Shown piece by piece: positions 1,240 through 44,094 of a stretch of 64,000 bases of DNA (positions within the stretch are counted from its first letter, which is position 1; each line of letters opens with the position of its first letter). This DNA is from a virus (Duplodnaviria; Caudoviricetes), in IMG/VR virus record IMGVR_UViG_3300048502_000136, positions 34,433 to 98,432 of that record. One strand, given 5' to 3'. A program made the position numbers and the translations under genes. The notes under the pieces were generated by a model that made no database searches, was not told the origin of the DNA, and saw nothing but the letters and a program-made list of their open reading frames with translations.

Positions 1240-3147
1240 CTACTTGCCCTGAGGCTTGCCCGCATTCGCCGCCTGCGCGCCGGCCGCCGCCAACTTCAAC
1301 TTCAGCACAGCCTCGTCCACCAACTCCGCCCGATTCTGCGCCAAGTCGAAATTAGCGTCCAGCGCGCGGAACATATTATTGCTGCTCAGATCACCCTGCC
1401 GACGCAGGACCAAGGCCATCTGCGCCCGATCCTCCTGCCCGAACGTCAAGGCTGACCCCGGCTTGATCGAGAACTGGAATTTCTTGACGAACTCTTCCGG
1501 CATCATCGACCCGGAGAGCAGTGACTCGTACATCGGCTGGAAGTCAGTTGACAGAATCCCGCGCTCGCCAAGCAGGCCGACGCGATGGCCGACCGTGTCA
1601 AACTGCAAAATAGTCGAAACCACCATCTGGCCCGCTTCCGACATGAATTGCTCAAGCTGCCTGCCCATGAGCCGGACCATCGACGACCGCGAGTTCTGGA
1701 TCATCTCCATCGTATCGTGCGAGGGGATTTGCTCCTTTTGCGCGGCGGCATCTATGGCAGCCGATCCAGTCGTCTGGTCCATCTCGCGGGTCACCATCTG
1801 AAGGAACGGGAGCGCCAAGGCCGGCACCTGTGGCTGGGCGCGAAAACTGGGAGGCGCTGGCGAGACCGGGTTGTATTCGAGCTTGCCACCTGAAATAGTG
1901 GTCGAGATATTATCCAAATCGGACCGCGAGACGGCATTCCTCGGCGTGATAATCGTCGGCGTGAGCCCGGCCTTGATTGTTTCGAGCAGGCCTGCCATGA
2001 TCCGGTTCAGGATATCCTGCGGCCCGATCAGGTTCCCTAACAAACTCATGCCTTCAGGCGACCACGGCGCGCGCAAGGGCGTCATCTCGACGTAAGGATG
2101 GCGGGCGAAAAAGTAAGGATTGCAAGTGTCGTTCAGCACGCGCCTGCCAGCTACCGTCAGCACCCGGCCGCGCGGAAACAAAAGTTCCCCAGGCTCGACC
2201 ATGTAAGCCCAGTTCGCCGAAGGCCTGCCCCGGTCAGTCGCTGGCCCGACGCAGACCGTCCGCGATGTCTCGTTCTTGCCAGGGTCGAGCAGCCAAAACA
2301 GCCGCTGGGTGACCATCGGGTACAGAGAGTCCGAGGTGGCTGAAGAGGATTTGACGCCGAGGATTTTCTGCATCTGCGGCGAGAATTTAGCCCATTCTGC
2401 GGAAGTGACCTGACTCGGCCGCATGACCTGTGAGTTCATCATGGGCGAGATCGAGTCAGGCTCGATATCGTCGGCGAGCGTGCCGAACCTGCGGCGGAGG
2501 CTGGCCAGGGTCACCCGCTTGGTCTCGATTACGCATTCTGCGTTGGCGATTGTGCCGTCGCCGCCGAGCGTGTAAAAGTTGAGCGGGTTGATTGACAAAA
2601 TTTCTACGTCCCCGACACCGCGATTAGCCTGCCGGTTCCACTGGACCTTGCCGATCCCCTTGGCTAAAAGGCCGAACCCGATAATGGACTGTAGCTCGGG
2701 CCGGTAGCTCGAAGTGGCTGCCCAATGCGCGAGGCGCTTGCCGAGGTAGTCTTGGATTTCAGAGTAAGTGTCCTGCCGGTCCCATACCTTGATCTCGGGC
2801 TCCGGCTTGCCGTCAGTCAGCAACGAGACTAGCTCCCAGTATTGCCGGAACATGCGGTTGGTCACTGGCCGGGAGGAGCCGTAAGCGGTCGGGCGCGAAG
2901 GCCACTGGTTCCCGGCGAGATACTGCATGATGCGGGGCAGGAGTTTCGTGGTCAGGGATTGCGAAGACTCTTCTTCCGCTTGGCGCATGGCCCGGTCAGC
3001 CCAGTGCACGACCTCATCTTCGAGGCGCTGCGGCGGGAGAGCGGCAAGTGAGGACTGGCTGGTGTAGGAGTTGAGCCGGGGATCACGCATGAAGCCGGGC
3101 TGGTAGCTGGACCCGGTAGCGCTCGCGGTCTGGAGAGGGGGAGCCAT
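1240..3147 (-). CDS. phage portal protein
   Basis: 635 aa, downstream of TerL; portal-like segments (RPVTNRMFRQYWELVSLLT, G-G-GKVQW, GMSLLGNLIGPQDILNRI, MDQTTG). Confidence 0.8.
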   Translation of the reverse strand: MAPPLQTASATGSSYQPGFMRDPRLNSYTSQSSLAALPPQRLEDEVVHWADRAMRQAEEESSQSLTTKLLPRIMQYLAGNQWPSRPTAYGSSRPVTNRMFRQYWELVSLLTDGKPEPEIKVWDRQDTYSEIQDYLGKRLAHWAATSSYRPELQSIIGFGLLAKGIGKVQWNRQANRGVGDVEILSINPLNFYTLGGDGTIANAECVIETKRVTLASLRRRFGTLADDIEPDSISPMMNSQVMRPSQVTSAEWAKFSPQMQKILGVKSSSATSDSLYPMVTQRLFWLLDPGKNETSRTVCVGPATDRGRPSANWAYMVEPGELLFPRGRVLTVAGRRVLNDTCNPYFFARHPYVEMTPLRAPWSPEGMSLLGNLIGPQDILNRIMAGLLETIKAGLTPTIITPRNAVSRSDLDNISTTISGGKLEYNPVSPAPPSFRAQPQVPALALPFLQMVTREMDQTTGSAAIDAAAQKEQIPSHDTMEMIQNSRSSMVRLMGRQLEQFMSEAGQMVVSTILQFDTVGHRVGLLGERGILSTDFQPMYESLLSGSMMPEEFVKKFQFSIKPGSALTFGQEDRAQMALVLRRQGDLSSNNMFRALDANFDLAQNRAELVDEAVLKLKLAAAGAQAANAGKPQGK

Positions 3148-3212
3148 TAAGTAGGGTCAGCAGCCCGGCGCAAGCACGTGGCGAAGGCTGGTCGAGGCTA
3201 TCGTACCTTAGG

Positions 3213-3551
3213 CTAGAGGTTGGGGGAAGGTTTCTTCTTGGCGCGGGGGAGAGTCGGGGCTGGCTTGACAGGCCTGACAGCCTCGACCGCCTTAAACTTC
3301 TTGCACATGGGCGAGGAGCACGGAATCATCCACCAGTCACGGAATCGCCATGCGCCAGAGTCCGTGTCATAAACGTGGTGGTGGACCGGGCGGGGCGGCA
3401 GGGCGGGCCTTTCTTCGTCAAGCGGGCGCTTGGTTGGCATATCGCTGGGCTGCGCGCGCTGGGCCTCCTTGGCTATCTCGGCCAAGTCGCGCTTTAGATC
3501 GTCTACGACCACAACAGGTTTAAGGCCGAACAAGCCGAAGAATTTGCTCAT
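3213..3551 (-). CDS. hypothetical protein with HHHV..CxxxxC metal-binding motif
   Basis: ATGA-coupled to upstream ORF. Confidence 0.55.
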   Translation of the reverse strand: MSKFFGLFGLKPVVVVDDLKRDLAEIAKEAQRAQPSDMPTKRPLDEERPALPPRPVHHHVYDTDSGAWRFRDWWMIPCSSPMCKKFKAVEAVRPVKPAPTLPRAKKKPSPNL

Positions 3552-32052: not shown

Positions 32053-35000
32053 GTGAAATGGCTGACTGCGCTGCTGGCGCTTTGTTTTGCGATTACCTTT
32101 CCCTCATTCGCCACTACCTACTACCTGTCACCTACCGGCAACGACCTGAACTCCGGCACGTCGACCGGCACGCCCTGGCAGACGCCGAATCATGCGCTGA
32201 ATTGCGGCGACGTGATCCAGGCCGCAGCATCGACGGCTTACAATGGCTCGCTGTTTTCAGAGTCGCACTGGGGCACGGTATCCGGCTGCTCGTCATCAAA
32301 TGAGTTTGCCTATCTGAACTGCATTAGCTTCGACGCGTGCAAGATTTCGGGATCGGGCAACTTCACCGGCATATGGGTGGACAAATCGAACTGGGCAGTA
32401 GAGGGATGGGAGGTTACCGTCTCGGGCTCGACAAATACGGCGTGCTTTCAGGCCACCCCAAACACGTCCACGCTTACCTCTATTCACCACATCCTATTCG
32501 CAAACAATGTTGCGAACGGTTGCGATGCGGCCGGATTCTCGACCTACAATCAAGGCTCTGCCGCGAGTGTCGATTACATCGCCATCGTCGGCAACATCGC
32601 CTACAACGCGGCCCAGGGATCGAACCAGTGCGGGTCAGGGATCAGCGTGTATCAGCCGATAGCCTACGATTCAGCAAGCGGCACGCATATCTACATCGCG
32701 GGCAACTTCTCCTACGCAAACACGAACGTAAATCCATGCGGAGGTACTGCTCCGACCGATGGGGAAGGGATTATCCTCGACACGTTCGACGGCTCGCAGG
32801 GTGGGTTGGCCTCCCCTTACTGCCAGCAGGCTGTCGTGCAGAATAACATCGTGTTTTACAACGGCGGCAAAGGGCTCTACGTCTACAACAACCAGGCTGG
32901 CTCGTGTCATGCGCCTATCTATTTCAAGTACAACACGGCGTACGGTGACCTCTTAGACAATAACCAGATTTACTGCCTGCTCAACGGCGATCTAACCAGC
33001 GTCACGGCATCGGACGTATCTGACAGCTACAACCTCGTGCAGACCAACTCGGCTACCGGCTGCGGCGGCAACGCTAAATATGGCTTTTCTATCTCGGGTG
33101 GGGATTCGACTGACACGTTCAACAATAACTACGTGTCGGGTGTCAGCGGCAACAACACGAGCATCTACAACTCCAGCGGGTTCTCTCTTGGATCGGGAAA
33201 CACCATCGGCACCAATCCCACCTTCTCAAATCCCGTGAATCCCGGCGCCCCATCGTGCGGGAGCTCGGCAAACACAGTGGCATGTATGTCCTCGGTGATC
33301 TCCGACTACACTCCTACTGTTTCGGCAGCCACAAGCTACGGCTACCAGATGCCGAGAACGTCGTCTGCGTATGACCCGCTGTACCCTCAGTGGCTCTGTT
33401 CTGCCACACTGCCAGCCGGTATCGTGACGCAGGGGTGCGGAGCGTCCACATGGTATGTCAGGCCAGCGGGTGGTACGCGCTACTCTACCAACGTCACGGC
33501 AGGCCAGTGCAACGGGCTGGCCGATGCTGACTACCCTGGTTCGGGCACGAATCAGGCATGCGCGTTCAATGACGTTCGCTACTTATTTCAGGACGGCACC
33601 TACAACACCGGGCCTGGCGGAGCATACCCGGCCTATGGCTGGATCGGCTCATCCGGCGATACCTATCTGATTCGTGGCTCTATTGGCACCGGTGCGTCCT
33701 ATCGCATCGGCTGGAATAATCCCAACTCGGCAACCTCTGGTTCAGTCTATTGGGGCGTGCCTGGCAACAATGCTTTGGGAATGCCTCCGCCAATCAACGG
33801 CACCTCGGCGGCTCACACGAAGATACTTGGCGAGAACTACGCTTCGTGCCACACGCAGTCATCGAAAACGCAGATTCACGGCGGCTATGGAGTCTACGGC
33901 ATTCTGGACCTGCGCGGCTCGTCTTATGTCGATGTGGCGTGCATCGACTTTACAGACTGGTCGGATTGCGGGCGAGCCAGCCAGACGAACCTCTGCAATA
34001 CAGGCATTGGCACGCTTTCGGATTTCGCTACCAATGGGGTGATGTTCAGCAACACAAGCACGAATCTTACCTTGACCGACATAGACGCTCACGGCCTCGG
34101 CTCTGGTGGGTTCTACGGGCCTACCGGAGGTAACGTCACGATGAACTATATAACCATCGCCGGTAGTCCATTCTCCGACTGGAGTACGGATGATGGAACC
34201 GTAGGAGTCGGCTCCCTAAACGTGACCAATTTCTCCTTCACATGGTCAGGATGCGCAGAGGAGTATCCGATAGTCGATGCCGTCCCTTATCAGGACTGCA
34301 CAGATGACAACTCCGGCGGCTACGGTGACGCTTGGGGCACTGCTAGCATCGTATCCACGACGCCATGGAACATTCACTTCGACCAAGGGGTCGTAGCTTA
34401 CAACACGCAAGATGGACTTGACGCGCTGCATCTGACGGGCGGAGGCACATCTGTAACGGTCACGCGGGTCTTGGCCTATGGCAACATGGGCCAGCAGATC
34501 AAGGTGGGAGGCGCTGGCGGAACAATCATCAACAACCTCATCGTCGGCAACTGCAACGCGCTTAGGCAGGCGATCCCCGGCGTACCGAGTGGCTACAACT
34601 CTAACCTGAGCGACTTCTGCCGGGCTGCTGACGTGGCCATCGCGGTCGCGGTTCAGGACGGCTCAACCCTGACGATTCAGGACAACACAATCCTTGCGGC
34701 CAATGCGACCACCTTTGAGATAGATTGCTCGGCCGGCAGCGCGGGGACTTGCTCGAGCAGCTACTACATGGATTTCCGCAACAACATCTTCCTCGGGTTT
34801 CAGAAGTCGTCGCTCACTGGCTATCCCGGCGTCACGCCTCCCGGAGCCTACTCTAATCCTTACGAGTGGAGCACGGCTGCGGACCCTCTAACGCTGTCCG
34901 GCTCGACTTTCGCCAACAACATCACCTACCACTACAACACGCTCGACTGGTCGTGCCCAGGATCGACGGAAGTCAATGCTCTGTGCGTTGACCCTGGCCT

Positions 35001-37521: not shown

Positions 37522-40500
37522 TTATTTTAACCTATGCTCCCCCCCCCCCCCCACCTTAACCTCAACTTCCTTCATGATTCCCCAATCCTCTCCAACCGAA
37601 CACTCTACATCAACCACCAGACCCGTCGGAGCCACCACAGGGTCCACTAGAACCTTGCTAGGCGCATGAAGAACCGGATAGATATCCTGCTGATGCTCTT
37701 CCAACCGTGAAGGGTCGATCAGGTTCAAAAGGGAATCATGAACCGTATTGCGAAGGCTCCACTTCTCATTTAAGCCACGCCGCTCTAACTCCTTCATAGC
37801 CTCTCGAATGTTGCCAAAGGCCAAGCTAGCGGGAAGGAAAGCAATAGCCTGCTCGGATTGCTCGCCAGGCTTCCAACCTCCTTTACCGTCCGGTGCATAC
37901 ACCTCGTAAAACCAGCGAATCGCTCCAAAGGCGTTTTTAAGAAAGCCTTCACGATGAGCCTGCTGGCGAACGGCTTCCTGCCATGCAAACACTTTTGGAA
38001 ACAGCGAGCGAATAACCTGCATAAAAGCAGAAGCTTCGGAAAGTGAGCTGAAGCTCTCCCTGTTCATGTCGTAAAGCTTGTTGACGCCAAGCCCGAAGCC
38101 AATGCCAAGTATACAATTAGCTACTAATTTGCCTGATACTGTATAGCACTTTCTCGGGCCTGCATCTGCTATGTCATATACCCGTGCGAAACTAACCACT
38201 TTCTCAAGGCTGCCCGTGTCTTGCAAGATGGACCCTGAACGCTGGCTATGGCATGCTCGATTACTTGCTCTCCAGTCATCTTCTTGTTCTTGACCAGGCG
38301 TCGAGTCCAACTGTAGTCGTAGGGAGAATCGAACTCGTCCAGTAGAATCTGACTCCCTTTGAAGGAAACCCACACGGTTATTCGACGATTGGACAACTGC
38401 TCCTTTCGAGTTGCAAGGCGCAGGTTCCCCGGCTCGTAATGGCCATTGTTGTCTATCCGGTCGATCTCCACGCCCTTGTAATTCTCGTGAGGGAGATTCT
38501 GAACCACCCACTGTACAAACTCGTTTCGAGTCTTGAACTTGGAGGTTATTCCCCGGCCACCATAGTCTGCGTATTTCGAATTGTGTGGAAAAAAGCATCT
38601 CGACACAATCGCGTCGTACCTTCGGCCTAAAACCCCTTGATGGATTGATTTGGTCTGATTGCATGACTGGCAGCCCGACGTGCCTCCGCCGAGTAGGCTG
38701 GACTTGTCGATCCAACGTTTCCTTTGACATTTCGTACATTGAACGAAAAGCCTGATGTATCCTTTTTCGCGCCGAACGTTCGAGGAGATGACCGTGACTA
38801 AACCGAACTGCTTGCCCAGCAACTCCGGTACTTGCGAGCCGAGCCAATGATGATGCTGCTCTCCCGAATGCCATCTCGAAGCCGTTTTCGAGGAAGACAA
38901 CGTGGTCGGGGGTCGCTGTGAGGCCGTCGTAAGTGATGACCTCTTGGATTCCTTTGTCAATGAGTCCTCCGTGAGAAACCCATTCTACTCCATCCCAAAC
39001 CCTGTGGGCAAGCGTTATGTCTTGGATTGGAACCAATCCACGATCTGTCAGAACCAACTCCCCTTCAGCAATACAAGGCTTGGCTTTTTTATCCCGGAGA
39101 AACTTCCGGTCCGGGTCTTTCTTAAACCATCGAAAGCGTTCCGCCAGTTCCTCGTCAGGTTGAGCAAACAGCTTAAAAGCATCCCAATCCTTGTTAAAAT
39201 GCCCGGCTACAAAAGAGTGCATATCAAGCCGGGCAAGCCTCATGTAGTCTAAATCTTTGGCGCAGTAGCCAGTAGTAAGAACGTGATAAGACTTGAAATC
39301 CCACTCCACCAAGAGTTTGCCTTGCTGCCGAATCATGGATCGTACGGCTTTGGCTAATTTTCCGTGCTTAGGGGCCGTCTGAATGTTCGGATTTCGGCTG
39401 GATAGCTGCATGGTCGCGGTGTCGTAAGTAAAAGTGGTATGGACACAACCAGTGTCAGGCCGAGGCTTAAATCCGTTGATGTAAGTTCCTCGCATCTTTC
39501 GCAACTCACGACAGTCCGCGACCTTGGTGTAGAAATTGTCTTTGTACTGGGTTGCAAGTCGAAGCAAGCTAACCTTATCGGTTGTGTTCTCGCCAGTTTT
39601 CTTGGTAGGGATTTTATGCTTGCGCGCAGCCATGTAGGATAGAAGTTGCGCGGGCGAGTTCGGCGAAAACTGATAGACCCGAAACCATTTAAGCTCGCCT
39701 GCCGTTGTCAGTCCCAAGTTCTCATCAAGCACGACCTGGCCAACCCGCCGAACCTCGTAACGGTAAGTCTCTCCTATAACTTCCTTACCGTTCGGGTCCA
39801 TTTCGGAAGGCTCATTGAATACCCGCTGCGAGATAAGTTTGCGCAGGTTGATATCTGCGGGAGTTTCGCCGGAAGTAACAGCCTGCGCGCGAGCATGTGC
39901 CTGCTGTTTTAGAGTTTCCTGAACCAGCTTTTTAGTTACCTTCTCTCCCTTTCGATTGATCCAGATTACCTTTCCGTCAGGCTTGCGCTGTTCCAGAAAC
40001 TCAGACTCAGGAAGAGGAGCTAGTTCGTCAAGAAGCTGGCAAACTTCGGGAGGAACTCCTGTATAGCCGGTAAGCCTGCCTGCGACCTTCGGCGTGACCT
40101 TTCTCGCGGCGTTTGGAAACCTGGCATCCAATTCAATCAAGGCTTCCCGTTCAGCTTCCTCAAACTCTACATCCAGAGCAAGCCTGCGCTGATCGTCTAT
40201 AGGCAGGCCCCGATCTTCCATAGCGGCCAAAATGGGTCGAGTCTGCTCCACCATGGAAACGAACCCAGCAGCTTCACGCTCCGGTTGCTGAGTGTCAGAC
40301 CAAATACCTCGGTCGTGCATAGTCCGGCGTAGAGTTCCGTAAAGTCTGAGTGCGCTGTCAACGTCGGCTATGCCATAGACTTCAATGCTGGAGTCGCTAA
40401 GATGCTTCCATGGAAAAGGAAATCCACAAAAAGTGCTAGCAAACTGCAAGTGAGCTGGAAGATCAGGCTGCCAGTACCGAAACATCAGAAGCGTATCGTG

Positions 40501-41622
40501 AATAGGGCCGTTAGGCCAGAAATACTGGCGGTGGTGGTAATCGCGCAGCCCGGTGGCCTGCATGACTCTAAGGTCGAACCCATGGAGATTGTGGCCGACT
40601 TTAGGCAAAGCCAATTTTAGAAGCCAGCGAACTGCTTGAATGTGCTCACCTTCCCATGAAAGGGCAAGGCCGGTTCCTGGCTGCGTAGAAAATTGAAAAA
40701 GACGCAAACGTGTATCTACGTAACCTTCAGTTGCGTCTTCGTCCAGAGACACGCTTTCGTATGTTTCCGTGTCAAAGCTTAAAGCCAGCAAGGAAGCATC
40801 ACGAGATGAAGGAGGTAAAGCTTGCCAAGCTTCAGACTTGGCTTTAGTGTCCCGACAGAAGGCATCCAATTCGGATCGAGTTGGTTTGAGGTTATACCTG
40901 AGATTGTATCGAGCCAGCCACGCGCGAACGGACTCGGCTTCAGCCGCCTCAGCCTCCTCAAGCGACATCGTGCTTTTGCAAAGAAACTCCTCAACCATCT
41001 TCGGCATGTCCAGGATAAAAGAGCGATCCCGACCTTGCCTGATATTGACGGCGCGCTGGATATCTCTGGCCAGAACCCCTGTCAGATGGATAGCTCCGCG
41101 CCGCAGAAAGGCCGGGTGGTAAGTCGGCACCACGAGCAGGTCAGCCACGCCCACGGCAGCGCAATACTCCGGGAGGGCACGAAACACATACCCGCGCGAG
41201 TGGCTGATGGATCGCTTAGCGCCCGAAATGCCAGTCAGGGTGCGAAACGGAATGTTGCCGAACGCGACAATAACTTTCGGCTTGAACTGGCGCAGGAAAG
41301 CAAGCAGGTTCGGCTTGCACGAGTCGATGACGGAGAACTCGTAAGGTGTGCCTGCGAGTTCGTTGCCCCAAGGTTTGCAGCGCAGAACATTCGTGATCGC
41401 AAACTGATCCCGCGTGTAGCCCAGCCTGCGCAGGGTTCTTTCCAGGATCATGCCTGACGGGGCAAACGGCCTAAAAGGAAGCTGATCGCGCGACTCGTGC
41501 TCGCCTGATGCTTCGCCGACCAAGGCCACGCCAAGGGTGCCCAAGCCTTCCGGCTGCGAGAAGTCAGTCCCGGCTGAGCATAGCTCACAGCCAAAGCAGA
41601 AGTATGGCTTGCTGCGAGTCAC
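37522..41622 (-). CDS. polA: family A DNA polymerase with N-terminal uracil-DNA-glycosylase-like domain, 3'-5' exonuclease and intein
   Basis: UDG: LVGEASG, TNVLRCKP, PTYHPAFL; Exo: FDTET, GHN..GFDL, YGIAD; Pol: TATMQLSSRNPNIQ, WDFKS, KAK/.LGIGFG, VHDS. Confidence 0.93.
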   Translation of the reverse strand: MTRSKPYFCFGCELCSAGTDFSQPEGLGTLGVALVGEASGEHESRDQLPFRPFAPSGMILERTLRRLGYTRDQFAITNVLRCKPWGNELAGTPYEFSVIDSCKPNLLAFLRQFKPKVIVAFGNIPFRTLTGISGAKRSISHSRGYVFRALPEYCAAVGVADLLVVPTYHPAFLRRGAIHLTGVLARDIQRAVNIRQGRDRSFILDMPKMVEEFLCKSTMSLEEAEAAEAESVRAWLARYNLRYNLKPTRSELDAFCRDTKAKSEAWQALPPSSRDASLLALSFDTETYESVSLDEDATEGYVDTRLRLFQFSTQPGTGLALSWEGEHIQAVRWLLKLALPKVGHNLHGFDLRVMQATGLRDYHHRQYFWPNGPIHDTLLMFRYWQPDLPAHLQFASTFCGFPFPWKHLSDSSIEVYGIADVDSALRLYGTLRRTMHDRGIWSDTQQPEREAAGFVSMVEQTRPILAAMEDRGLPIDDQRRLALDVEFEEAEREALIELDARFPNAARKVTPKVAGRLTGYTGVPPEVCQLLDELAPLPESEFLEQRKPDGKVIWINRKGEKVTKKLVQETLKQQAHARAQAVTSGETPADINLRKLISQRVFNEPSEMDPNGKEVIGETYRYEVRRVGQVVLDENLGLTTAGELKWFRVYQFSPNSPAQLLSYMAARKHKIPTKKTGENTTDKVSLLRLATQYKDNFYTKVADCRELRKMRGTYINGFKPRPDTGCVHTTFTYDTATMQLSSRNPNIQTAPKHGKLAKAVRSMIRQQGKLLVEWDFKSYHVLTTGYCAKDLDYMRLARLDMHSFVAGHFNKDWDAFKLFAQPDEELAERFRWFKKDPDRKFLRDKKAKPCIAEGELVLTDRGLVPIQDITLAHRVWDGVEWVSHGGLIDKGIQEVITYDGLTATPDHVVFLENGFEMAFGRAASSLARLASTGVAGQAVRFSHGHLLERSARKRIHQAFRSMYEMSKETLDRQVQPTRRRHVGLPVMQSDQINPSRGFRPKVRRDCVEMLFSTQFEIRRLWWPGNNLQVQDSKRVCTVGGSESPSRELQGRGDRPDRQQWPLRAGEPAPCNSKGAVVQSSNNRVGFLQRESDSTGRVRFSLRLQLDSTPGQEQEDDWRASNRACHSQRSGSILQDTGSLEKVVSFARVYDIADAGPRKCYTVSGKLVANCILGIGFGLGVNKLYDMNRESFSSLSEASAFMQVIRSLFPKVFAWQEAVRQQAHREGFLKNAFGAIRWFYEVYAPDGKGGWKPGEQSEQAIAFLPASLAFGNIREAMKELERRGLNEKWSLRNTVHDSLLNLIDPSRLEEHQQDIYPVLHAPSKVLVDPVVAPTGLVVDVECSVGEDWGIMKEVEVKVGGGGEHRLK
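37539..37552 (+). repeat. poly-C tract (C14) in the last codons of polA
   Basis: direct count. Confidence 0.85.
38116..39075 (-). mobile_element. intein in PolA motif B (320 aa)
   Basis: C1 CIAEGELVLTDRGLVPI, block B TATPDHVV, block F RVYDI..AG, terminal VAN followed by Cys+1; removal restores KAKP-CILGIGFG. Confidence 0.93.
38169..38960 (-). CDS. HNH-type homing endonuclease nested in the +1 frame inside the PolA intein
   Basis: GKQFGLVTV, CTKC...GCQSC Zn ribbon, RC..P....Y.DYGGRGI, EIDRIDNNGHYEPGNLRLATRKEQ.SNRR; GGAGG SD 5 nt before the TTG. Confidence 0.88.
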   Translation of the reverse strand: MTKESKRSSLTTASQRPPTTLSSSKTASRWHSGEQHHHWLGSQVPELLGKQFGLVTVISSNVRREKGYIRLFVQCTKCQRKRWIDKSSLLGGGTSGCQSCNQTKSIHQGVLGRRYDAIVSRCFFPHNSKYADYGGRGITSKFKTRNEFVQWVVQNLPHENYKGVEIDRIDNNGHYEPGNLRLATRKEQLSNRRITVWVSFKGSQILLDEFDSPYDYSWTRRLVKNKKMTGEQVIEHAIASVQGPSCKTRAALRKWLVSHGYMT

Positions 41623-44094
41623 TTAAAGCCACTCCTTCACGCGCGGGTCCGCCACGCACTTGCTCGCCACGACCTCTTTTGAACCTACGATACGGAGACC
41701 TTCCAAGGTCCGGCACCGGGACAGCGCCGTGTAAGCCATGGCAGGCTGGTTCATCGCCCACGAGCGGAAATCAATCTGCAGCTTATCCAAGGACAGGCCT
41801 TGGCAGTTGTGCCCAACAAACGGGCCAAACGACATAATGTGCGGCGAGGCTATCTCAACGTCTCGCATGGCAACTTGATCACTTGAGGACTCAATCGAGA
41901 CAATCTGGTCGAATCCATCGGTGCGGGTTATGGACCTATTTGGTCGCAGCCCTTCCAGCTTATCCTTCTTGCGCGTGACAGAAAACCCGACGCGATTGAT
42001 AAAGTCGGGCAAGCCAGCGGCATGCACAGAAACTTGCCAGTATGGCCGGTTTTCGCCTTTATAGAGACCTGTATGACGACGGCGCTTGGAAAAAATTCCC
42101 AAGCCTAGCAACATGTTCTGAACATCCCTGCTCATCTGCTCAGACGCAGTCGTAAGAACCAGATAAGAACGACCAACATGGCCATCCGTATCGAACAGGC
42201 CTTGCAAATAAGCCCCCCACGCCTGCCAGCCGGACTGCCAAACCTTCTCAGGAATTTTCTTGTTCGGGCCAGTAACGTAATCCAAGCCCAATCCAAGTAG
42301 CTTGCGCCGAAAAGGCTGCGAAGTCGAGTGAAGGCCATTCGTCTTTTTACCCTTACGCCACTCGCAGCGTAAGCCTTCTACATCGTTTAGATAAGATTTG
42401 TAACGGTAGCCCACTTCAGGGTCTTTGCCAGAGGCCATGTGCAAGGTTCCGTCGTCGCGGTCGTTGTAAGAGCCGTATCCGCAAAGAGCCCCCATAAACC
42501 ACGCAAGTTCCGTAGGAACTTCGTCGCTTCCAGGAAACGGCCTTCCCTGAGCTAGCTGAATTGAATTACCTACCTCTAACGATTGCGTTTCAACCAGACC
42601 TAAGTTAGTTTGCCAACGGTGCTCTGCCGAGCAGGTAATTTCGTAACCGCGCTCGGTGTGAATCGTCCAAGCAGGATGAATTGAATCAGCTACAGCCTTA
42701 ATCACCCCGAACGGTGTAATGTCACCTTCCTTGACTTCTCGCAGTTTCAAAAGGCCCCAGTTGAAAACCGGCACCCGCTCGTTGCTATCAACGCACTTAT
42801 GAACAGTGCTGGCGTAGGCCAGCCGGATCGGGAAATACTCTAACTGCCCTGACACATAGCGCTTGGCCTTGGCCCGAAAGTGAGGCTGGCCGATATACCC
42901 GCCAAGGTCTTCGCCTGATGCGACCGTAATCTCGTCATGCATGTCACTGGGCCGGTCAAGTGAATCGACCGAGCGCACGACCGACCTGACCGGGACGACT
43001 GTGCCGGACCTGGCCAGTTCAATCAGCACCTTGGGCGGCTCGCCTGGTTGCCCGCTCGGCTGAATCCCGCGAACATGCCCGCAGTCCCCGTTCACGTAGA
43101 TCAGGTCGCGGTCCACGTAGAAATTGCTGAGGATCATGACGTAGGCCCCTTCGCGCAGGATGGTCCTGTCAGGGATGTTCTTCCACTCGGAGCGAAGCTT
43201 GCCCCAGCGGCGGGCCGGAAGCGCCATCAGCCTGCCTTTGACGCGATCCAGGGCGACCTGATTGAACCGGTCCACTTCGTCGTTCTTGCTAGTCAGGGTG
43301 GTGCCGTCGAACTCGATATCGACCGCCGTGTGGAACTCGACGCCCGCCGCCGAGAGCAGGCCAGCCGCCTCAGCCCCGCGCCCGGCCCTGGCATAGTTAA
43401 GAATGCGCAGGTAGCGCTCGTCAGCCTGCCGCCAGACTTTAGTGAGCCGCAGGGTATTCCGCGCGAACCTCGGCCATGAAGAGGCGTCGAAAAACCACGG
43501 CGTCGGGACTCTGGCGCGCGAGTGTTTGAGCCGGGAATCCGGAATGGCCGGGAGTTGCGCCGGGTCGCCGGTCAGGATCAGGCCGATAGGCGGGCGGCGC
43601 AGGTGAATATCAACTTGGCTCGGCTGCTGATTCACGTCGTCGAACACTTTCACGAGCAGGTCCAGCATGCTGGCAGAGAGCATGGAAACTTCATCTATTA
43701 CGACATTGCTGTAGCCGTCCGCGATCACGCGGCGAAGCTTGCGCTGGGGCGCTCCCTTGAGATAAGCGTCACGCAGCGAGTCCTCGTCGAAAAATCCAAG
43801 AAGAGAGTGAATCGTAGTGCAGTTAAGGTTGACGCTCGCAATTCCGGTCGTAGCGCTAAGCACGGCATAGGAAGGGTTGTCGAGAAGGCGCTGACGAAGG
43901 GTGAAACTCTTGCCGCTGCCCGCCGGTCCGGTGATAAAGGAGCAGGGGGTTTCGCGGAGGTCGGGGTTGGCAGACTGTGCGGCGCTCTCATCGTCCAAGT
44001 AAAAATCGCTCGTCGGGTCCATTATCTGGATCGGCTGGTCGAGGAGAGCATCCAGGTTAAGGTCGGTCTCGGTCTCGGTGTCAGGGTTGGTCAT
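41623..44094 (-). CDS. Pif1-family (SF1B) DNA helicase with intein
   Basis: ITGPAGSGKS, IDEVSM, GDPAQLP, LTKVWRQ, YASTVHK/CQGLSLD. Confidence 0.92.
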   Translation of the reverse strand: MTNPDTETETDLNLDALLDQPIQIMDPTSDFYLDDESAAQSANPDLRETPCSFITGPAGSGKSFTLRQRLLDNPSYAVLSATTGIASVNLNCTTIHSLLGFFDEDSLRDAYLKGAPQRKLRRVIADGYSNVVIDEVSMLSASMLDLLVKVFDDVNQQPSQVDIHLRRPPIGLILTGDPAQLPAIPDSRLKHSRARVPTPWFFDASSWPRFARNTLRLTKVWRQADERYLRILNYARAGRGAEAAGLLSAAGVEFHTAVDIEFDGTTLTSKNDEVDRFNQVALDRVKGRLMALPARRWGKLRSEWKNIPDRTILREGAYVMILSNFYVDRDLIYVNGDCGHVRGIQPSGQPGEPPKVLIELARSGTVVPVRSVVRSVDSLDRPSDMHDEITVASGEDLGGYIGQPHFRAKAKRYVSGQLEYFPIRLAYASTVHKCVDSNERVPVFNWGLLKLREVKEGDITPFGVIKAVADSIHPAWTIHTERGYEITCSAEHRWQTNLGLVETQSLEVGNSIQLAQGRPFPGSDEVPTELAWFMGALCGYGSYNDRDDGTLHMASGKDPEVGYRYKSYLNDVEGLRCEWRKGKKTNGLHSTSQPFRRKLLGLGLDYVTGPNKKIPEKVWQSGWQAWGAYLQGLFDTDGHVGRSYLVLTTASEQMSRDVQNMLLGLGIFSKRRRHTGLYKGENRPYWQVSVHAAGLPDFINRVGFSVTRKKDKLEGLRPNRSITRTDGFDQIVSIESSSDQVAMRDVEIASPHIMSFGPFVGHNCQGLSLDKLQIDFRSWAMNQPAMAYTALSRCRTLEGLRIVGSKEVVASKCVADPRVKEWL
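41806..42795 (-). mobile_element. intein with in-frame LAGLIDADG endonuclease (330 aa)
   Basis: C1 CVDSNE, block B ITCSAEHRW, WFMGALCGYGS and YLQGLFDTDG motifs, terminal GHN followed by Cys+1. Confidence 0.93.

Follow-up and report, generated by a model that had tools for sequence, protein, structure and literature searches.

A class-1 intein in a viral family-A DNA polymerase that probably carries a PacI-like endonuclease gene overprinted in its +1 frame

The DNA analyzed here, hereafter the window, is a stretch of 64,000 nucleotides (nt) from a 98-kb viral record that is 98% complete (IMG/VR record IMGVR_UViG_3300048502_000136, positions 34,433 to 98,432), and it contains a gene for a family-A DNA polymerase that is interrupted by an intein of 320 amino acids (aa). 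The center of this intein is Arg/Ser-rich and is matched by no endonuclease model of Pfam. The question raised by the locus is whether the polymerase carries an endonuclease-less intein, or whether, as an earlier note on this DNA had proposed, a homing endonuclease is encoded out of frame within the intein. We favor the second answer, with a probability of roughly 0.85: the locus would be a dual-coding mobile element, in which a class-1 intein in a family-A polymerase is overprinted in the +1 frame by a homing endonuclease gene of the free-standing type. The polymerase gene and its intein are composed of the following parts:

41622..37522, minus strand: open reading frame (ORF) of the DNA polymerase precursor, 1366 aa with the intein included, recognized by an N-terminal UDG domain and a family-A polymerase
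39075..38116, minus strand: class-1 intein, 320 aa, Cys1 to Asn320, between KAKP and CILGIGFGLG, at the presumed motif B
39075..38791, minus strand: N-terminal splicing half, aa 1–95, with TPDH block B (pLDDT, for predicted local distance difference test, 96–98)
38790..38206, minus strand: frame-0 read-through of the nuclease gene, aa 96–290, an Arg/Ser/Gln-rich linker by composition and model
38205..38116, minus strand: C-terminal splicing half, aa 291–320, with blocks F and G and the terminal Asn (pLDDT 92–97)
38115..38113, minus strand: Cys+1 codon of the C-extein, the splice-junction nucleophile, as read from the sequence

The frame from 41622 to 37522 is uninterrupted along its whole length, and its UDG and DNA_pol_A domains were matched by Pfam. 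The intein corresponds to residues 850–1169 of the polymerase and lies at a site that we take to be motif B, from motif B of Taq polymerase (R..AK...NFG..YG). It starts with CIAEG, contains TPDH in block B and VYDIADAGPR in block F, and ends with VAN followed by Cys, so that the splicing blocks which the earlier note had seen at both ends of a 320-aa intein were recovered. C1, T55, H58 and N320 were invariant in an alignment of 50 homologues, and in a non-redundant set of relatives Cys1 and the terminal Asn were each present in 52/52, the +1 residue being Cys in 51 and Thr in 1. Single-sequence searches of solved structures with the intein and nuclease proteins found nothing, and at E values up to 10 Pfam gave no intein or HNH model for either the nested ORF or the intein. 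A profile built from the 50-homologue alignment matched the Mtu RecA mini-intein (PI-MtuI) with an E value of 7e-4, and the AlphaFold model of the intein matched 31 solved intein/Hint chains (Z 8.0–15.7), with 2imz as the top match (Z 15.7, 118 residues, 2.6 Å). The insert is thus, by its predicted structure, a class-1 intein whose Hint fold is formed by its two terminal segments. The center (aa 96–290) consists of 14% Arg, 11% Ser and 9% Gln, in agreement with the Arg/Ser-rich composition noticed earlier, and 27% of its residues are hydrophobic versus 46% at both ends. A helix was predicted for aa 95–121 (pLDDT 64–78), and aa 121–290 were almost devoid of secondary structure (pLDDT 38–55).

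The 263-aa ORF pointed out in the earlier note is read in frame +1 on the same strand, and both frames are open over its 792 nt. Its landmarks are as follows, the stop codon falling within block F as had been claimed:

38960..38169, minus strand: +1-frame ORF, 263 codons plus TAG, for a predicted PacI-like His-Me (variant HNH) endonuclease that has a Zn ribbon at its N terminus, by profiles and model
38738..38661, minus strand: Cys4 Zn ribbon of the nuclease (C75, C78, C97, C100), by family alignment
38462..38388, minus strand: nuclease core motif D167-R168 ... Y175 ... N179 ... N191, aligned by profile with the PacI motif DRSDSFEGYSPQN
38171..38169, minus strand: TAG that ends the nested ORF, within the codons for I-A in block F (VYDIAD), as read from the sequence

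The nested ORF matched two PHROG families of HNH endonucleases, phrog_374 (E 1e-27) and phrog_3377 (E 3e-22). The model of its product, made with 60 homologues, had a mean pLDDT of 87, and from residue 41 on the mean of each 10-residue block was between 80 and 98; residues 1 to ~40 are predicted to form a disordered extension over intein block B, where frame 0 dominates. Among 60 sequences of the nuclease family, C75, C78, R121, C122, Y133, R136, G137, R168, Y175, N179 and N191 were invariant and C97 and C100 near-invariant; all 11 invariant residues are kept in the window copy, and D167 is also there. The earlier note had called this protein a complete endonuclease of the Zn-ribbon/HNH type. 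The Cys4 Zn ribbon and the membership in HNH families hold, but the position of the first, catalytic His of classical HNH enzymes is taken by Arg168, which is invariant in the 60 sequences and aligns with the DR of the PacI DRSD, as in a PacI-type Arg/Tyr variant. The profile motif LDRIDNNGHYEPGNLRLA (in the window, IDRIDNNGHYEPGNLRLA) aligns with GVDRSDSFEGYSPQNARLA of the restriction enzyme PacI, in a match that covers DRxD..Y.P.N; the profile matches to PacI and to I-HmuI are weak. In a comparison with an exhaustive structural aligner, PacI (3m7k) ranked second among 48,161 chains, with a modest Z score of 6.0 (78 residues, 2.7 Å, 19% identity). PacI is a His-Me enzyme with a loop tyrosine instead of a histidine (PMC5714182, PMC4081073), and the roles of the tyrosine and of the Asp/Asn metal ligands were assigned from the same two papers. 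Because of the invariant Arg in place of His, the motif alignment, the structural match and the known role of the tyrosine, the predicted nested protein is assigned to the variant HNH nucleases of PacI-like type, with a Cys4 Zn ribbon at its N terminus; by itself, the structural score would be insufficient for this classification. A kinship of the family with a neighboring HNH_3 protein was rejected (hhalign probability 0.2%). A stand-alone protein of 715 aa (P0124) carries two tandem copies of the nuclease domain and, after them, a region containing SPPY, a motif typical of DNA methyltransferases. The PacI-like domain may here be part of a fusion that resembles a restriction-modification system.

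Openness of the polymerase frame across the nuclease gene was compared with expectation by keeping the nuclease protein and redrawing its synonymous codons from the codon usage of the extein, 200 times. No polymerase-frame stop is present inside the nested ORF of the window, compared with 17.5 expected, and 0/200 redraws were stop-free; the third frame has 12 stops over the same interval. Across 63 non-redundant loci, five polymerase-frame stops were found against 655 expected, all five in one locus of split form (L073), so that the polymerase frame is stop-free across the nested ORF in 62 of the 63 and both frames are kept open in the homologues, as had been anticipated; the third frame had 830 stops against 630 expected. 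Similarly, nearly all 1200-nt segments that follow Cys1 lack a frame-0 stop, while the third frame has 6–49. The expectation that constraint would be exerted on frame 0 at the ends and on the +1 frame centrally was also borne out. In 52 loci the most variable codon position was position 3 of frame 0 for intein residues 1–80 and 281–320, and position 1 of frame 0, which is the third position of the nuclease, for residues 81–280. Between the window and its five nearest relatives, identity over the same columns was 55–65% in the nuclease frame and 29–39% in frame 0. Relative to the intein, the nuclease frame is +1 in most of 66 loci and +2 in 12, and in none of them is it in frame. Among the longer database proteins searched, no complete in-frame fused form was found, which is weak evidence of absence; the search yielded an N-half fusion described below and two unrelated multidomain proteins. 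As judged by codon-level comparison, selection is shown to preserve the nuclease protein in the central region, where the polymerase frame needs only to lack stops, and the dual reading frame is real and maintained by selection.

Two other explanations of the open frames can be weighed against these data. Two compensating indels, introduced by sequencing or assembly, might conceal an ordinary intein with an in-frame HNH domain. However, the same layout recurs in more than 60 independent assemblies, the frame relation being shared by 66 loci from independent metagenomes and by the GenBank phages APSE-1 and Javan113, and an artifact would not specifically purge frame 0 of stops; stop purging, codon-position variability, identity in the two frames and the recurrent frame relation therefore exclude an assembly indel pair for practical purposes. 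Alternatively, the Arg/Ser/Gln-rich center could be a functional domain, for example in nucleic-acid binding or splicing control, that is selected beyond mere openness. It can be aligned at the 29–39% identity given above and its first part (aa 95–121) is predicted to be helical, but its conservation mirrors that of the nuclease frame (GDRPDRQQWPLRAGE overlies the nuclease motif EIDRIDNNGHYEPGN), its third codon position is among the two least variable and its first position the most variable, and its pLDDT of 38–55 does not suggest a fold. We regard such a domain as highly improbable, and favor the reading in which the center is overprinted by the nuclease gene.

If the nuclease is produced from the +1 frame, how is it translated? 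The signals concerned are the following:

38970..38966, minus strand: GGAGG Shine-Dalgarno sequence in the intein codons G-G (GGA GGA), 5 nt before TTG, as read from the sequence
38960..38958, minus strand: TTG at nt 115 after Cys1, the proposed nuclease start; no other start codon lies between it and the last preceding +1-frame stop
38945..38928, minus strand: site of the family-typical start (AAGGAGGT-N8-ATG, codons K-E-V-I-T-Y-D), which reads AAGAGGT...ACG in the window, the ATG being lost

The +1-frame stops ahead of the nested ORF are at nt 25, 58 and 88 after Cys1, from which all start positions are counted here. The GGAGG and the TTG 5 nt downstream are present in the codons for H-G-G-L-I-D exactly as the earlier note had described them. 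Most relatives with a +1 nuclease have an ATG at nt 145 downstream of AAGGAGG or GAGGT, signals that come from the intein codons K-E-V-I-T-Y-D/G. The codon of residue 49 (Tyr or His), which creates this ATG when it ends in T (NAT), did so in 21/25 loci, versus 44% elsewhere in the same genes (p 5e-5, uncorrected for the relatedness of the loci). The four exceptions include the window and locus L083; both have TAC, and both have CAC GGA GGA CTC ATT GAC, that is, GGAGG-N5-TTG. The proposal that the Shine-Dalgarno–TTG pair is conserved is thus correct for L083, but most relatives use AAGGAGG...ATG. Other relatives without the ATG at nt 145 have alternative starts at nt 103 (ATG) or nt 115, the nuclease of other subfamilies starts at nt 121, 133 or 202, and in the +2 group the start candidates are ATG codons at nt 77 or 92, within the stretch that encodes the VWDGVEW motif. 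A GGAG or GAGG site precedes about half of the window's long ORFs, so the phage uses Shine-Dalgarno sites. Given this usage and the start signals, independent internal initiation is the best-supported route to the nuclease, which in the window likely starts at the TTG (38960..38958).

Several observations weigh against the proposed dual-coding element or its parts. The family-typical ATG at nt 145 is lost in the window, where it reads ACG; the Shine-Dalgarno sequence of the proposed TTG is at the same time an ordinary pair of Gly codons; the chance of meeting a GGAGG-N4-9-start at the appropriate position and in the appropriate frame is ~0.02 (a rough estimate), and a single relative has it; and the nuclease start varies in the family (nt 103, 115, 121, 133, 145 and 202). 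The codon-choice statistics count related loci as independent. On the side of the protein, the PacI match reaches a Z score that unrelated best hits, at Z 7–8, typically exceed, Foldseek gave no match below E 0.3 for the nuclease model against the PDB, and the nested ORF had no match to Pfam HNH, HNH_3 or Endonuclease_7 at E values up to 10. In the intein, the penultimate residue is Ala319 instead of the block-G His, which may slow splicing. Among relatives this residue is His in 30, Ser in 15, Leu in 4, Ala in 2 and Phe in 1, and it is commonly varied in active inteins.

The loss of the ATG gives rise to the most serious rival, namely that the nested gene is a decaying relic: the intein would still splice, and the nuclease would no longer be made, the ATG having been lost too recently for the ORF to be broken. 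Decayed nuclease copies do occur in relatives, with a stop at nt 319 in L002 and L018 and broken genes in L046 and L057 as well, and the homing-cycle model (PMC1654191) predicts decay of the nuclease after fixation. The window copy itself is intact over 263 codons with every invariant family residue in place, its model is confident, a canonical GGAGG-N5-TTG common to the window and L083 stands in place of the lost ATG, and relatives without that ATG have other starts at nt 103 or 115; we thus consider a relic unlikely. Programmed ribosomal frameshifting from the intein frame, which would produce a fusion of N-extein, N-terminal intein half and nuclease and no free protein, appears less likely still. 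That a fused product is at least encodable is illustrated by P0123, in which the polymerase N-terminal part and the intein N-half are in frame with the nuclease. However, +1-frame stops just upstream (nt 25, 58 and 88; in relatives up to nt 181–199) leave little room for a shift site, Shine-Dalgarno sequences and start codons are enriched at the beginning of the nuclease ORF, and one slippery mechanism would not serve a family that has both +1 and +2 layouts; no slippery motif was noticed, although no systematic search for one was made. Internal initiation at the TTG, yielding a separate nuclease, remains our preferred reading.

Two further observations concern this region. A sigma-70-like site (TTGCCC-18-TAGAAT; 39011..38982, minus strand) ends ~12 nt before the GGAGG, and its -10 element coincides with the conserved V-E-W codons (GTA GAA TGG), which are also the source of the +1-frame TAG at nt 88. 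A promoter scan of the region gave 2 sigma-70-like sites versus 2.7 in shuffled sequence, which is not above chance, and the site is not used as evidence. In a close relative (L085:2730-3686; 59% nuclease identity), +1-frame stops are present at nt 112 and 139 and there is no ATG at nt 145; its first starts are an ATG at nt 241 and a TTG at nt 253, right at the folded domain.

The distribution of the element was examined among polymerases. An insert at this polymerase site was found in 12 of the 124 cluster representatives with a readable junction and was absent from 112; most of the 12 inserts are 318–328 residues long and start with CIAEG. Close polymerase relatives occur with and without it, an example of an insert-less junction being DKQSKP/AILGIGFGLG at 61% identity (a slash marks the insertion point). 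Four intein-less polymerases (P0267, P0271, P0385 and P0378) have Cys at the +1 position, as in DKKSKP/CILGIGFGLG, which equals the flank in the window; such alleles may be footprints of precise intein loss or ready-made targets. The same intein family is also found at other polymerase sites (/CYGMG and /CENxxQA), and it includes mini-inteins of 129–147 residues without a nuclease gene (L036, L040, L041, L047 and L048; starting at position 3001, but at 2210 in L048). In split relatives (L073:3001-3900, L062:3001-4250 and L075:3001-3300) the polymerase frame stops after 84–95 intein residues; L073 retains a homologous nuclease ORF between the intein halves, and L062 has a different filler of ~900 nt. 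The window is not fractured in this way, its frame 0 being continuous. Of three database homologues on long contigs that were checked, L087 and L089 are intein-nested too and only L088 looks free-standing. P0123 (933 aa) is a protein in which the N-terminal part of the polymerase and the intein N-half run in frame into the nuclease and end at its stop, the C-terminal half of the intein being absent. A frameshift mutation, an error of sequencing or a separate kind of fractured gene could account for it. The patchy presence and these different states fit a homing element that would have arisen when a free-standing nuclease gene entered a mini-intein.

An out-of-frame endonuclease in an intein is a layout that is already known; the Gogarten laboratory published it in 2025–26, and the annotation of phage APSE-1 includes it. 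Gosselin, Arsenault and Gogarten (bioRxiv 10.1101/2025.01.02.630785) described inteins of actinophages that contain an Endo VII-like nuclease "in frame 3", together with antisense nucleases. As in the window, a same-strand, out-of-frame nuclease occupies the endonuclease slot of the intein, the extein frame is open and predicted to be unstructured, and the origin proposed is invasion of the intein by a free-standing homing endonuclease. Their nuclease is Endo VII-like and in frame 3, and the paper contains no analysis of ribosome-binding sites, whereas the window nuclease is PacI-like, of the Tyr type with a Zn ribbon, in the +1 frame (+1 or +2 in relatives) of family-A polymerases, with Shine-Dalgarno and start signals in intein codons and without a match to Pfam Endonuclease_7. 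Phillips, DeSimone and Gogarten (bioRxiv 10.64898/2026.09.14.751524) reported a cyanobacterial dnaX intein with an out-of-frame LAGLIDADG endonuclease and follow the concept back to Gorbalenya 1998 (Nucleic Acids Res 26:1741). That system shares with the present one an overlapping ORF under purifying selection, a relaxed intein frame, a sporadic distribution and a proposed secondary invasion of a mini-intein, and differs in its nuclease type (LAGLIDADG), its frame (+2) and its location in a cellular host gene. The ShiLan-domain HNH hidden in the DNA methylase of a mycobacteriophage (Arsenault et al., Genes 2025; PMC11855218) is likewise an out-of-frame HNH gene in a host ORF that stays stop-free, but there is no surrounding intein, the insert remains in the host protein, and no ribosome-binding site was found, leaderless initiation being proposed. 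Fractured genes, in which a free-standing endonuclease gene lies between the halves of a split intein (Dassa et al. 2009; PMC2677866), resemble the locus in having a nuclease gene of the free-standing type between intein halves, and the relatives L073, L062 and L075 are of this split type; the nucleases of that study belong to GIY-YIG and Vsr-like families, whereas the window has a continuous frame, one precursor and, presumably, cis-splicing. R.PacI (3ldy/3m7k; His-Me finger group 20, PMC5714182) shares with the window nuclease the lack of the catalytic His, the D-R-x-D ... Y-x-P-x-N motif with an attacking or activating Tyr, and Zn-bound Cys motifs, and its beta-beta-alpha-metal core may have a counterpart there, but it is a dimeric restriction enzyme of 142 aa, whereas the window nuclease has additional predicted N- and C-terminal domains and a putative homing context.

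The closest annotated case is that of Hamiltonella phage APSE-1 (NC_000935.1), whose polymerase P45 contains an intein of the same family (CLAKGTLVLT ... IVHN/C) with an open, junk-like center in the polymerase frame and a homologous +1 nuclease that is annotated as coding sequence P46, "HNH endonuclease". The insertion site (/CENICQAAARD) and the polymerase type are different. In our analysis (L090, locus 2955-3377) the +1 frame is open from nt 184, with a GTG at nt 202 as the likely nuclease start. P46 as annotated begins further in, at the ATG at nt 430 after Cys1, and so lacks the Zn ribbon. The intein of the APSE polymerase is a known one that is variably present (PMC7313666), and our literature search found no paper that describes P46 as the out-of-frame homing endonuclease of this intein. 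Streptococcus prophages such as Javan113 have the same layout without its being annotated, the Javan records giving only "DNA polymerase I". In the literature compared, we did not find a PacI-type nuclease in such a position, start signals that lie in conserved intein codons and can change place, or a consistent lack of in-frame forms.

Taken together, the following course of events is proposed. Ribosomes would read the polymerase gene from 41622 to 37522; residues 1–95 and 291–320 of the intein would form the modeled Hint fold, and the ~195 residues between these halves, which come from reading through the nuclease gene, would be unstructured. The intein would be excised by Cys1, Cys+1 and Asn320, and KAKP-CILGIGFG thereby restored. 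A second initiation, most likely at GGAGG-N5-TTG (38970..38958), would yield a separate 263-aa protein with a disordered tail of ~40 aa, a beta-barrel with the Cys4 Zn ribbon, a PacI-like core and a helical C-terminal domain, the core being a predicted beta-beta-alpha-metal fold with Asp-Arg ... Tyr ... Asn ... Asn, in which Tyr replaces the usual His. Because the distribution is patchy, we propose that the nuclease cuts intein-less alleles, presumably at or near KAKP/(A/S/T/G/C)ILG(I/Y)GFG, and that the intein, together with the nested gene, would be copied into such an allele during repair. A free-standing nuclease gene that entered a mini-intein is the likely origin; there are relatives both as mini-inteins and as split inteins.

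Directly upstream of the polymerase lies a PIF1-like helicase gene (44094..41623, minus strand), in which residues 628–690 match LAGLIDADG_3 (Pfam E 2e-13); the in-frame endonuclease that the earlier note had seen in the neighboring helicase is therefore present, and the gene looks like the carrier of a second, conventional intein in a neighboring replication gene. Elsewhere in the window, a full-length Cpn60/GroEL (12122-10362, minus strand; Pfam E 1e-55) and an SU10/P22-like portal protein (3147-1240, minus strand) are encoded.

Beyond the window, a very large lineage, so far not described in these terms, could have the out-of-frame state as its obligate and selected architecture, which would then be no rare transitional accident: polymerase inteins in which a His-less, PacI-like nuclease of the Tyr type is always overprinted (+1 or +2) and never fused, with a ribosome-binding site and start in the conserved K-E-V-I-T-Y-D codons (AAG GAG GTn ATn ACn TAT GAn) and a start that can shift (nt 103, 115, 145 or 202) while the gene is kept. 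We offer this generalization tentatively and would put its odds a little below even. If true, obligate overprinting would be a natural model for long-term dual coding, and also for the merging of a nuclease gene with a splicing element into a single mobile unit. Standard gene calling gives only the polymerase in such loci; therefore the inteins are scored as endonuclease-less and the whole nuclease family goes uncounted. The earlier note had foreseen such an oversight, and the nested ORF of this record is indeed missing from the protein database. The window contributes one further member of the family, with the details of its start site, and a clean example of dual coding over ~790 nt, where selection acts on the protein of one frame and only on the openness of the other. 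A compact Tyr-type His-Me nuclease, as predicted here, with a presumed long conserved target in a polymerase motif may be of interest to enzyme engineers. Finally, a mini-intein, an overprinted intein and a split intein with a free gene are found side by side in one family, and the coexistence of these three states speaks for the idea that capture of free-standing nuclease genes is how inteins become mobile.

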